NCBI RefSeq assembly: GCF_003334355.1 | Contig: NZ_QOWP01000041.1 | DNA: 28,749 bases | Origin: Escherichia coli | Lineage (GTDB): Bacteria; Pseudomonadota; Gammaproteobacteria; Enterobacterales; Enterobacteriaceae | Reading direction: 5' to 3' (one strand) | Part shown: positions 15,847 through 17,450 of the stretch, in pieces | Position numbering within the stretch: position 1 is the first letter of the stretch | Layout: each line of letters opens with the position of its first letter | Position numbers and translations under genes: made by a program | The notes under the pieces: generated by a model | Database searches by the model: none | What the model was told of the DNA's origin: nothing | The model's input: only the letters and a program-made list of their open reading frames with translations

Positions 15847-16252
15847 CCACAAAATATTTGTTATGGTGCAAAAATAACACATTTAATTTATTGATTATAA
15901 AGGGCTTTAATTTTTGGCCCTTTTATTTTTGGTGTTATGTTTTTAAATTGTCTATAAGTGCCAAAAATTACATGTTTTGTCTTCTGTTTTTGTTGTTTTA
16001 ATGTAAATTTTGACCATTTGGTCCACTTTTTTCTGCTCGTTTTTATTTCATGCAATCTTCTTGCTGCGCAAGCGTTTTCCAGAACAGATTAGATGATCTT
16101 TTTGTCGCTTAATGCCTGTAAAACATGCATGAGCCACAAAATAATATAAAAAATCCCGCCATTAAGTTGACTTTTAGCGCCCATATCTCCAGAATGCCGC
16201 CGTTTGCCAGAAATTCGTCGGTAAGCAGATTTGCATTGATTTACGTCATCAT

Positions 16253-16292
16253 TGTGAATTAATATGCAAATAAAGTGAGTGAATATTCTCTG
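16253..16292 (+). promoter_or_regulatory. Putative ARG boxes (ArgR operator) overlapping the carAB P2 promoter region
   Basis: Two TGAAT-N-ATTCA-like imperfect palindromes (tgtgaattaatatgcaaa and gtgagtgaatattctct) lie just upstream of the carA TTG start. That carAB P2 is arginine-repressed via ArgR is established knowledge; exact boxes were not verified. Confidence 0.4.
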
Positions 16293-16301
16293 GAGGGTGT
16301 T

Positions 16302-17450
16302 TTGATTAAGTCAGCGCTATTGGTTCTGGAAGACGGAACCCAGTTTCACGGTCGGGCCATAGGGGCAACAGGTTCGGCGGTTGGGGAAGTCGTTTTCAAT
16401 ACTTCAATGACCGGTTATCAAGAAATCCTCACTGATCCTTCCTATTCTCGTCAAATCGTTACTCTTACTTATCCCCATATTGGCAATGTCGGCACCAATG
16501 ACGCCGATGAAGAATCTTCTCAGGTACATGCACAAGGTCTGGTGATTCGCGACCTGCCGCTGATTGCCAGCAACTTCCGTAATACCGAAGACCTCTCTTC
16601 TTACCTGAAACGCCATAACATCGTGGCGATTGCCGATATCGATACCCGTAAGCTGACGCGTTTACTGCGCGAGAAAGGCGCACAGAATGGCTGCATTATC
16701 GCGGGCGATAACCCGGATGCGGCGCTGGCGTTAGAAAAAGCCCGCGCGTTCCCAGGTCTGAATGGCATGGATCTGGCAAAAGAAGTGACCACCGCAGAAG
16801 CCTATAGCTGGACACAAGGGAGCTGGACGTTGACCGGTGGCCTGCCAGAAGCGAAAAAAGAAGACGAGCTGCCGTTCCACGTCGTGGCTTATGATTTTGG
16901 TGCCAAGCGCAACATCCTGCGGATGCTGGTGGATAGAGGCTGTCGCCTGACCATCGTTCCGGCGCAAACTTCTGCGGAAGAGGTGCTGAAAATGAATCCA
17001 GACGGCATCTTCCTCTCCAACGGTCCTGGCGACCCGGCCCCGTGCGATTACGCCATTACCGCCATCCAGAAATTCCTCGAAACCGATATTCCGGTATTCG
17101 GCATCTGTCTCGGTCATCAGCTGCTGGCGCTGGCGAGCGGTGCGAAGACTGTCAAAATGAAATTTGGTCACCACGGCGGCAACCATCCGGTTAAAGATGT
17201 GGAGAAAAACGTGGTAATGATCACCGCCCAGAACCACGGTTTTGCGGTGGACGAAGCAACATTACCTGCAAACCTGCGTGTCACGCATAAATCCCTGTTC
17301 GACGGTACGTTACAGGGCATTCATCGCACCGATAAACCGGCATTCAGCTTCCAGGGGCACCCTGAAGCCAGCCCTGGTCCACACGACGCCGCGCCGTTGT
17401 TCGACCACTTTATCGAGTTAATTGAGCAGTACCGTAAAACCGCTAAGTAA
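16302..17450 (+). CDS. carA: Carbamoyl-phosphate synthase small (glutamine amidotransferase) subunit
   Basis: Class I glutamine amidotransferase motifs (GICLGHQ, and H/E near the C-terminus). A TTG start at 16302 preceded by GGAGG is preferred (382 aa); the track's GTG at 16275 would add 9 aa. Confidence 0.9.

Follow-up and report, generated by a model that had tools for sequence, protein, structure and literature searches.

The carAB operon of Escherichia coli K-12 is regulated by pyrimidines, purines and arginine via PepA, RutR, PurR, IHF, PyrH and ArgR (PMC6245113), and its control region has long been studied (Piette 1984; Bouvier 1984; Charlier et al., reviewed in PMC6245113). Its arginine operator is composed of two 18-bp ARG boxes 3 bp apart, for which arginine-dependent ArgR binding, repression and operator mutations have been published. 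Operators in the E. coli arginine regulon (those of argF, argI, argECBH and others) likewise consist of two 18-bp imperfect palindromes separated by 3 bp, which overlap a promoter and bind one ArgR hexamer. The carAB operator differs from these in having a second promoter, P1, upstream of it. Salmonella typhimurium and other Enterobacterales have the same arrangement of tandem P1 and P2 promoters, ARG boxes at -49 from carA's TTG initiation codon, GGAGG-N5-TTG, and RUT and PUR boxes.

The DNA analyzed here (the window) is a stretch of 28,749 nucleotides, and the interval of interest is its dapB-carA spacer. The RefSeq annotation of the matching regions of K-12 MG1655 and strain PSS-12 reads dapB, then carA and carB, with the carA start at 16302. 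The window is 99.97% identical to PSS-12 (8 substitutions plus a single indel over 28.5 kb), and it differs from MG1655 at three positions over 4.1 kb (14100-18200), only one of which, 16088, falls in the spacer; CarA carries D227E (16982). All the elements published for K-12, namely the IHF site, the predicted PepA zone, the RUT and PUR boxes, the Dam site, P1, a candidate P2, the ARG boxes, the Shine-Dalgarno sequence and the TTG, are found here at their published distance from P1. Moreover, of 5426 E. coli genomes, 5391 carry the 161-bp core that runs from P1 through P2 to the TTG with an identity of 99% or more. The interval is thus almost certainly the E. coli dapB-carA intergenic region with the classical carAB control region, working as published, and we found no evidence that contradicts this explanation. 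The feature is already known, and its identification is a correct but ordinary recognition of a long-studied control region. What we observed directly is the sequence features with their positions, uniqueness and conservation; for protein binding, promoter activity and regulation we rely on published work with the K-12 sequence, from which the window differs at one base in the spacer.

The dapB-carA spacer and the upstream regulatory sites

The spacer (15847-16301) is 455 bp long and has a G+C content of 33%, versus 50-60% in the flanking genes. Its first ~85 bp, directly after the dapB stop codon at 15844-15846, are the dapB 3' UTR and intrinsic terminator (15847..15931, plus strand) and overlap the IHF site. 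RNA folding gives an 8-bp G+C-rich hairpin at 15899-15923 followed by a U-run, TTATTTTT. The built-in terminator scan reported no terminator in the region; it missed this hairpin because the loop has 9 nt and the scan allows 8. The hairpin is kept in relatives even though the stem sequences differ. By its sequence, the same interval, 15847..15931, is a degenerate counterpart, or remnant, of the DapZ sRNA locus. In other Enterobacterales genera, the dapB 3' UTR carries a full DapZ sRNA, and the equivalent place scores 57-91 bits against the DapZ family (Rfam RF02551). Here, the match at 15850-15930 reaches 25.3 bits (E = 0.12), below the gathering score of 56. In the Enterobacterales alignment, the G/U-rich seed block of DapZ is absent from the Escherichia sequence, which has lost it. 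At its upstream end, the carAB region shares its DNA with the dapB terminator and the DapZ remnant, and the IHF site and the terminator therefore overlap on one stretch of DNA.

The published IHF footprint, -324 to -287 from P1 (PMC6245113), falls at 15878..15915. An exact match to the IHF core, WATCAANNNNTTR, lies within it on the minus strand at 15884-15896, although matches to this core consensus occur in the window at chance frequency only; the TTGATT of the IHF region is conserved in the Enterobacterales alignment. By analogy with K-12, and counting from a P1 +1 at 16202, the published -280 to -60 zone (PMC6245113) would place the ~220-230 bp of DNA wrapped around the PepA hexamer at 15922..16142. 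Within that zone is the RUT box, the RutR operator, TTGACCATTTGGTCCA, at 16010..16025 (-192 to -177 from P1, the published position). It is the sole match to TTGACCANNTGGTCAA in the window at up to two mismatches and is kept across the Enterobacteriaceae and Erwinia.

The PUR box, the PurR operator GCGCAAGCGTTTTCCA, is at 16066..16081, and its center at -128.5 from P1 is the published center (PMC6245113). It matches the consensus weakly: a scan with the strict palindromic PurR consensus misses it, with five mismatches to a perfect palindrome, and the relaxed core GCAAGCGTTTTC, while the only match in the window at one mismatch or fewer, would be expected 0.77 times by chance. The assignment therefore rests on position, conservation and literature, with CGCAAGCGTTTTC of the box conserved in the Enterobacterales alignment. 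The Dam GATC site occupies 16095..16098, its adenine 106 bp upstream of the P1 +1 (position: PMC6245113). The one spacer base that differs from K-12, at 16088, is A in the window and G in K-12; it lies at -114 from P1, between the PUR box and the GATC site, in an alignment column that varies between genera, and PSS-12 also has A there.

Taken together, the upstream site blocks and P1 stand out as phylogenetic footprints in the Enterobacterales alignment. The published coordinates map exactly onto P1 and the RUT, PUR, Dam and IHF sites, which bears out the view, reached in an earlier sequence-only reading, that the AT-rich DNA upstream of carA is a multi-regulator P1 control region. That reading had also called this DNA a leader of ~450 bp. 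The AT-rich region is there, but the word leader does not apply to it: transcription begins only at 16202 (P1) and ~16269 (P2), and the transcribed leader is only ~100 nt long from P1 or ~33 nt from P2.

Promoters P1 and P2 and the ArgR operator

P1 (16167..16208, plus strand) is recovered by the promoter scan as TTGACT-17-CAGAAT, with the -35 element at 16167-16172 and the -10 element at 16190-16195. These are followed by a GCCGCC discriminator at 16196-16201 and a +1 G at 16202, from which the initial transcript reads GTTTGCC, in agreement with the GUUUGC start and GCCGCC discriminator described for P1 (PMC6245113). The +1 is 100 nt upstream of the carA TTG. Its elements are invariant or nearly so in the Enterobacterales alignments. 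P1 would be the pyrimidine-controlled promoter, with GCCGCC providing for stringent control and the GTTTGCC start for UTP-sensitive reiterative transcription. Two promoter-like matches on the minus strand, at 16122-16093 and 15954-15925, were set aside, as the whole scan gave four matches on both strands, close to the 2.1 expected from shuffles.

P2 (16236..16272, plus strand), which would be the arginine-controlled promoter, is less distinct. Its start, near 16269, was placed 67 nt downstream of that of P1, the published separation (PMC6245113). The candidate -35 (TTGATT, 16236-16241) and -10 (TAATAT, 16260-16265) hexamers were picked by eye; they match at 8 of 12 positions, below the threshold of the promoter scan. 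Both hexamer blocks are invariant in 14-18 Enterobacterales.

Over P2, the sequence-only reading had noted two palindromes at 16253-16292 as fitting ArgR operators. The consensus scan puts ARG box 1, TGTGAATTAATATGCAAA, at 16253..16270, with one mismatch to WNTGAATWWWWATTCANW and the best match in the window, and ARG box 2, AGTGAGTGAATATTCTCT, at 16274..16291, with three mismatches. The start of the range therefore holds and its end does not, box 2 ending at 16291. Each box is 18 bp long and the spacer between them is 3 bp (21 bp from center to center), as in the published operator. Since the spacer is AT-rich, the two palindromes could in principle be chance matches of the TGAAT/ATTCA type and no operators at all. 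Indeed, single matches with three mismatches are at chance level in the window (8 found, 4.7 expected), and box 2 taken alone is such a match. However, box 1 has only one mismatch, and the tandem pair with its 3-bp spacer is the sole one in the 28.7-kb window. None of 300 dinucleotide shuffles of the window produced such a pair, nor, at four or fewer total mismatches (the observed quality), did any of 5000 shuffles of the spacer. Moreover, in all Enterobacterales loci examined (~20 genera) the boxes are fixed at -49 from the TTG and 3 bp apart while the flanking bases vary, and for the carAB sequence the literature reports both binding of ArgR and mutations in the operator. Chance palindromes, already refuted by these controls, retain a practically negligible probability. 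The consensus scan, the shuffles and the conservation agree in identifying the palindromes with the ArgR operator published for P2.

The operator spans ~-16 to +23 of the literature-derived P2 start. A 2018 review states that the ARG boxes overlap the P2 -35 element (PMC6245113), whereas by the review's own 67-nt figure they lie over the P2 -10 element and the start. In this position, one arginine-bound ArgR hexamer would bind both boxes over the -10 element and start of P2 and exclude RNA polymerase. According to the literature, ArgR does not block P1 transcripts, and so it is not an efficient roadblock.

ES003 and the P1 leader RNA

The 5' part of the P1 leader, 16202..16254 (plus strand), corresponds to ES003 (Rfam RF02750), a discrete 53-nt RNA-seq species at K-12 coordinates 29551-29603 that falls 133-fold in stationary phase (PMC4676190). 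This raises the alternative that the leader encodes an independent sRNA or a cis-regulatory RNA, which would add a post-transcriptional layer to carAB control. The Rfam match is strong (87.4 bits against a gathering score of 37), the RNA species is discrete and its abundance changes with growth phase, and its 3' end meets the upstream boundary of ARG box 1. However, the Rfam model was built from this very locus, so the match shows only identity, and ES003 starts exactly at the P1 start point, so that its promoter is that of the mRNA, which counts against a separate gene. No terminator was found, either by the original authors (PMC4676190) or by our scan. The leader folds no better than shuffled sequences (z = -1.44; 18 of 200 shuffles as good), and the consensus fold of 18 sequences is without covariation (covariation term 0.01); the columns that pair in it do not vary, being those of the P2 -35 element and ARG box 1. 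Nor does the review report attenuation control at P2 (PMC6245113). The terminator scan, the fold and the covariation thus give no sign of ES003 as an independent, structured or terminated RNA gene, and we regard such a function of the leader as unlikely. A structured RNA in the P1 leader was rejected, given that shuffles fold equally well and that the invariant "pairs" are DNA elements.

A further idea, that ES003 is what remains when ArgR stops the polymerase, was suggested by the way its 3' end at 16254 abuts ARG box 1. However, a polymerase halted by a bound protein would be expected to come to rest some 15-20 nt short of it. The literature, too, calls ArgR a poor roadblock, and the idea was dropped. 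Two small reading frames in the same stretch were also dismissed: a tiny leader ORF at 16125-16262 starts upstream of P1, and the ATG at 16264 opens an ORF of four codons without a Shine-Dalgarno sequence.

The carA initiation codon

The carA gene (16302..17450, plus strand; 382 codons) begins with TTG at 16302-16304, the initiation codon given in the literature (PMC6245113). The Shine-Dalgarno sequence GGAGG (16292..16296, plus strand) directly abuts ARG box 2 and is separated from the TTG by exactly five nucleotides (GTGTT), as the sequence-only reading had it. Its duplex with the 3' end of 16S rRNA has a free energy of -9.8 kcal/mol, within the top 0.44% of window positions. The first in-frame ATG, at 16407, is codon 36 and lies inside a conserved motif, which leaves no ATG for initiation, again in line with that reading. 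GGAGG would then direct initiation at the TTG at 16302 and yield a CarA of 382 residues, a start on which the RefSeq annotation, the pairing of GGAGG, the PDB chains and conservation agree.

Two other start codons have to be weighed. The longest ORF (16275..17450, 391 aa) opens at a GTG at 16275-16277, within ARG box 2, that is in frame and 27 nt (nine codons) upstream of the TTG; an in-frame TAA lies further upstream at 16260-16262. That this GTG is in frame and adds nine residues was noted beforehand and holds true, yet it merely extends the ORF. Were it the true start, as a longest-ORF call would have it, CarA would have 391 residues with nine extra at the N terminus. In its favor, the relatives nearest to E. 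coli (E. albertii, Citrobacter and Enterobacter) have the GTG too. It has, however, no Shine-Dalgarno pairing (+0.4 kcal/mol) and lies only ~6 nt from the 5' end of the P2 transcript. Further afield (Kluyvera, Mangrovibacter, Yersinia aldovae, Budvicia and others), CTG, GCG or ATG takes the place of the GTG at -9, or the GTG is out of frame, while the TTG is invariant: RIT691 and Mangrovibacter have CTG, Kluyvera and Photorhabdus have GCG, Y. aldovae has the GTG out of frame, and in Budvicia a stop codon sits only three codons upstream. The presence of the GTG is explained by the operator, because its last two bases are the TG that is conserved in the half-site of ARG box 2. Finally, RefSeq and the PDB use the TTG product; the depositor sequences of all E. 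coli CarA chains in the PDB have the N terminus MIKSALL, which corresponds to the GTG-initiated ORF from residue 10 onward. The GTG start is accordingly very improbable, and the longest-ORF start should not be used for carA.

The second alternative is initiation at the adjacent ATT (16305, codon 2). The sequence paper of Piette et al. from 1984 reportedly left "UUG or AUU" open. The ATT is 8 nt from GGAGG, an acceptable spacing, and one chain of PDB entry 1a9x is listed from Ile-2, although this probably reflects only the listing of modeled residues. Against it, codon 2 varies freely among 78 species (ATT, ACN, AGY, AAY and GCN, for the most part unable to initiate), with T at the second position in 27 species, C in 32, G in 14 and A in 5, whereas the TTG is invariant, and the later literature gives TTG. 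We assign ATT hardly any probability. The comparative data thus settle the choice of TTG over both the GTG and the adjacent ATT without proteomics.

The TTG is conserved well beyond the Enterobacterales. It is the carA start in 78 of 80 gammaproteobacterial species, and in Amphritea and Acinetobacter as well, within a clade of Enterobacterales, Vibrionales, Aeromonadales, Alteromonadales, Oceanospirillales and Moraxellales. In the 78 species, GGAGG is 94-99% conserved per base and the 5-nt spacing is kept in nearly all; the TTG stays while synonymous sites in the same codons are saturated or randomized. Neisseria, Legionella, alphaproteobacteria and Bacillus have ATG, and the one clear switch to ATG within the clade, in the Orbaceae, was accompanied by loss of GGAGG. 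A non-canonical start with a strong ribosome-binding site is thus fixed across several gammaproteobacterial orders, which raises the question of what a change from TTG to ATG would do to the CarA:CarB balance and to fitness. Our literature searches found no report of carA TTG conservation, though their coverage was incomplete and this is not proof of novelty.

One tentative explanation, to which we give a minor share of the probability, is that the weak TTG and the strong GGAGG have been actively maintained since the ancestor of this large clade, and that carA initiation could be a selected control point. If so, initiation might determine the ratio of CarA to CarB, or might be responsive to IF3 or to growth rate, a control layer that is missing from the otherwise exhaustively studied regulation of carAB. 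We know of no translational regulation of carA. The AUU start of infC, through which IF3 regulates its own synthesis, is a conserved non-AUG start with a regulatory role. By analogy, the carA TTG and infC-like non-AUG starts may both be weak start codons kept by selection over long evolutionary distances. Unlike infC, carA pairs the weak codon with a near-perfect Shine-Dalgarno sequence, which could equally be a fixed tuning of output and no switch. The dull alternative is an epistatic trap, in which a strong Shine-Dalgarno sequence and a weak codon can be exchanged only through two simultaneous changes. The second gene of the operon, carB (17468..20689, plus strand), starts with ATG, as it does in 80 of 80 related loci.

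The carA start codon

Between 15600 and 16700, a 273-codon ORF ends (stop codon 15844-15846) and a long ORF begins, with a 455-bp spacer of 33% G+C (versus 50-60% in the adjoining coding DNA) between them. This stretch is found by megablast in 5,426 of 5,426 complete E. coli genomes, annotated as dapB and carA, and the carAB control region is in itself already known and of low interest. At its downstream end, GGAGG (16292-16296) stands 5 nt before a TTG (16302-16304), and a GTG (16275-16277) lies in frame nine codons upstream, preceded by an in-frame TAA (16260-16262). The sequence-only reading had placed the TTG, GGAGG and GTG correctly, and its statement that an in-frame ATG start is absent also holds, the earliest in-frame ATG being codon 36 (16407).

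The proposal that TTG is the unusual carA start is borne out by several kinds of evidence. Pairing of the 16S rRNA 3' end upstream of TTG reaches -9.8 kcal/mol, in the top 0.44% of all window positions, versus +0.4 kcal/mol for the GTG. In the PDB, all E. coli small-subunit chains open with MIKSALL, matching the GTG-initiated ORF from its residue 10 onward, and the NCBI PGAP annotations of K-12 MG1655 and the related strain PSS-12 begin carA at the equivalent of 16302 (382 codons). We also retrieved 80 species-representative genomes with internal CarA peptides, so that no search pattern covered the start codon; in 78 of them the codon aligned to CarA residue 1 is TTG. A 2018 review of carAB control (PMC6245113) and the RutR paper likewise give TTG.

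Initiation at GTG 16275, which would add nine residues, is very unlikely: besides lacking Shine-Dalgarno (SD) pairing and PDB or PGAP support, this codon would have only about 6 nt of P2 transcript before it and is not conserved. The -9 codon is GTG in close relatives only and otherwise CTG, GCG, ATG or out of frame, and in some species a stop codon falls 3-8 codons before the carA TTG. Its presence is explained by the second ArgR operator box, whose left half-site contributes the "TG" of this GTG. The ATT at codon 2 was reportedly left open as an alternative start in the 1984 sequence paper. However, codon 2 varies freely in other species, which argues against it.

Conservation of TTG and GGAGG

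The one result here that goes beyond the textbook is the conservation of this initiation signal. Across 78 species, the T, T and G of the start codon are each 100% conserved and the single bases of GGAGG (-10 to -6) 94-99%, whereas third positions of codons 2-13 are near random (commonest base 40-55%). The gap from GGAGG to TTG is 5 nt in nearly all, and 6-7 nt in Amphritea and Acinetobacter. In the same loci, carB starts with ATG in 80 of 80. Outgroup carA loci were drawn from chromosome records mislabelled in a plasmid collection; TTG is used in Amphritea and Acinetobacter and ATG in Neisseria, Legionella, Sphingomonas, Rhizobium and Bacillus, and the Ralstonia start is ambiguous between GTG and TTG. 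Taken together, these sequence comparisons indicate that the pairing of a weak codon and a strong SD is ancient and is maintained by purifying selection within a large clade of Gammaproteobacteria.

Only one clear exception occurs inside the clade, Orbaceae bacterium ESL0727 (locus L058, around 1501), where carA has switched to ATG and also lost GGAGG, and a good ARG-box pair is retained at -55 (4 mismatches). This one natural example is consistent with compensation between codon and SD strength. Retention of TTG and GGAGG may serve regulation or set the stoichiometry, or may be an epistatic trap. A literature search of incomplete coverage found no discussion of this conservation.

Promoters and regulatory sites

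Published work puts the P1 start point 100 nt before the TTG, at a G that comes after a GCCGCC discriminator and has UUUGC behind it; this corresponds to 16202. A promoter scan places its -35 and -10 elements at TTGACT (16167-16172) and CAGAAT (16190-16195). Further upstream are a Dam GATC (16095-16098; -106), a RUT box (16010-16025; -192 to -177) that is the sole match in the window, and the published IHF footprint (15878-15915; -324 to -287). The PepA-wrapped zone (15922-16142; -280 to -60) is placed from the literature only. Consensus scans for IHF and PurR sites gave an exact IHF core consensus (15884-15896) and a weak PUR box (16066-16081; centre -128.5), with 5 mismatches to the palindrome and a core match that is unique yet at chance frequency. 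In a 14-genus alignment, each mapped spacer site is a conserved block amid diverged DNA.

A scan with the ARG consensus did place boxes at 16253-16270 (1 mismatch to the 18-bp consensus) and 16274-16291 (3 mismatches), where the palindromes had been assigned to ArgR, except that the second had been ended at 16292. Taken singly, 3-mismatch matches occur at chance level in the window; the tandem pair with its 3-bp spacer is the sole such pair there and arose in 0 of 300 window shuffles and, at the observed quality, in 0 of 5000 spacer shuffles. The same spacer and -49 offset to TTG recur in Citrobacter, Enterobacter, Kluyvera, Erwinia, Yersinia, Brenneria, Budvicia, Providencia, Photorhabdus, Pectobacterium and others. 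In Vibrionaceae the boxes at this position are weaker and of the TGCAT type, and Alteromonadales have no ARG boxes at the corresponding place. The pair is the published carAB operator, in which two 18-bp boxes 3 bp apart are bound by one hexamer. As proposed, it would lie over P2: with the published distance of 67 nt between the P1 and P2 start points, the boxes would extend from about -16 to +23 relative to P2, over the putative -10 element and start point. ArgR and RNA polymerase are reported to be mutually exclusive at P2, with ArgR no roadblock for P1 transcripts. The review's wording that the boxes partially overlap the P2 -35 element is inconsistent with its own 67-nt distance.

Of 5426 E. 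coli genomes, 5391 carry the 161-bp P1-P2-TTG core at 99% identity or more, versus 754 for a 1101-bp stretch with coding flanks. In a 4.1-kb stretch spanning the spacer, K-12 and the window disagree at 3 positions, only one of them, 16088 (-114 from P1), inside the spacer. It is A in the window and PSS-12 and G in K-12, and sits between the PUR box and Dam site within the PepA-wrapped zone. The change is probably neutral, because PSS-12 shares it and the column is variable among genera. Within carA, 16982 is G in the window and PSS-12 versus T in K-12 (CarA D227E).

The dapB 3' UTR, small RNAs and the wider window

The ~450-bp AT-rich "leader" of the sequence-only reading is indeed a multi-regulator region onto which published sites map, but the transcribed leader is limited to 16202-16301 (from P1) or about 16269-16301 (from P2). 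The first ~85 bp after dapB are instead the 3' UTR of that gene with its terminator, which RNA folding shows as a hairpin (15899-15923) and a U-run behind it; the carAB IHF footprint overlaps this terminator. A terminator scan did not pick up this hairpin because its loop is 9 nt.

The Rfam sRNA family DapZ (RF02551) matches this UTR (15850-15930, + strand) at 25 bits versus a 56-bit cut-off. Full DapZ (57-91 bits) occurs at the same position in Citrobacter, Enterobacter, Kluyvera, Mangrovibacter and Yersinia (carA loci L003, 1051-1128; L012, 1052-1129; L010, 1052-1129; L011, 1042-1119; L016, 1038-1112), and the Rfam model found none at the corresponding position in E. albertii. The conserved G/U-rich ACCCATCGTGATGTGGTT seed block is absent in Escherichia and the terminator is kept. 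Judged by these matches, the Escherichia UTR is a degenerate DapZ locus that retained its terminator and lost its seed in the Escherichia lineage. A second family, ES003 (RF02750), matches 16202-16254 (+ strand, 87 bits), the first half of the P1 leader, its sharp 3' end abutting ARG box 1. It was described as a 53-nt RNA-seq species starting at P1 that drops 133-fold in stationary phase. The region showed no terminator, significant fold or covariation, and we interpret ES003 as a fragment from the 5' side of the P1 leader.

Over 28.5 kb, PSS-12 is 99.97% identical to the window (8 substitutions and 1 indel); identity to K-12 is 99.1-99.4% over the whole window, with differing IS and fimbrial content. 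Segment 3142-7202 is missing from K-12, where an IS1 and a truncated fimbrial gene occupy its place. In PSS-12 this segment is annotated with a frameshifted fimbrial protein, a truncated usher and a frameshifted espX1; the window has one T more at 3667, inside the "frameshifted" fimbrial gene. Between carB and caiF (21380-21561) are two direct copies of a ~92-bp unit with REP-like palindromes, of which K-12 lacks 21406-21541, about one and a half units. The last ~185 bases (28564-28749) correspond to an IS1 end and diverge from PSS-12 caiT at 28569, pointing to insertion of IS1 into caiT. At the other edge, the first 89 bases (1-89) match an IS421/IS186-type element adjoining mokC.
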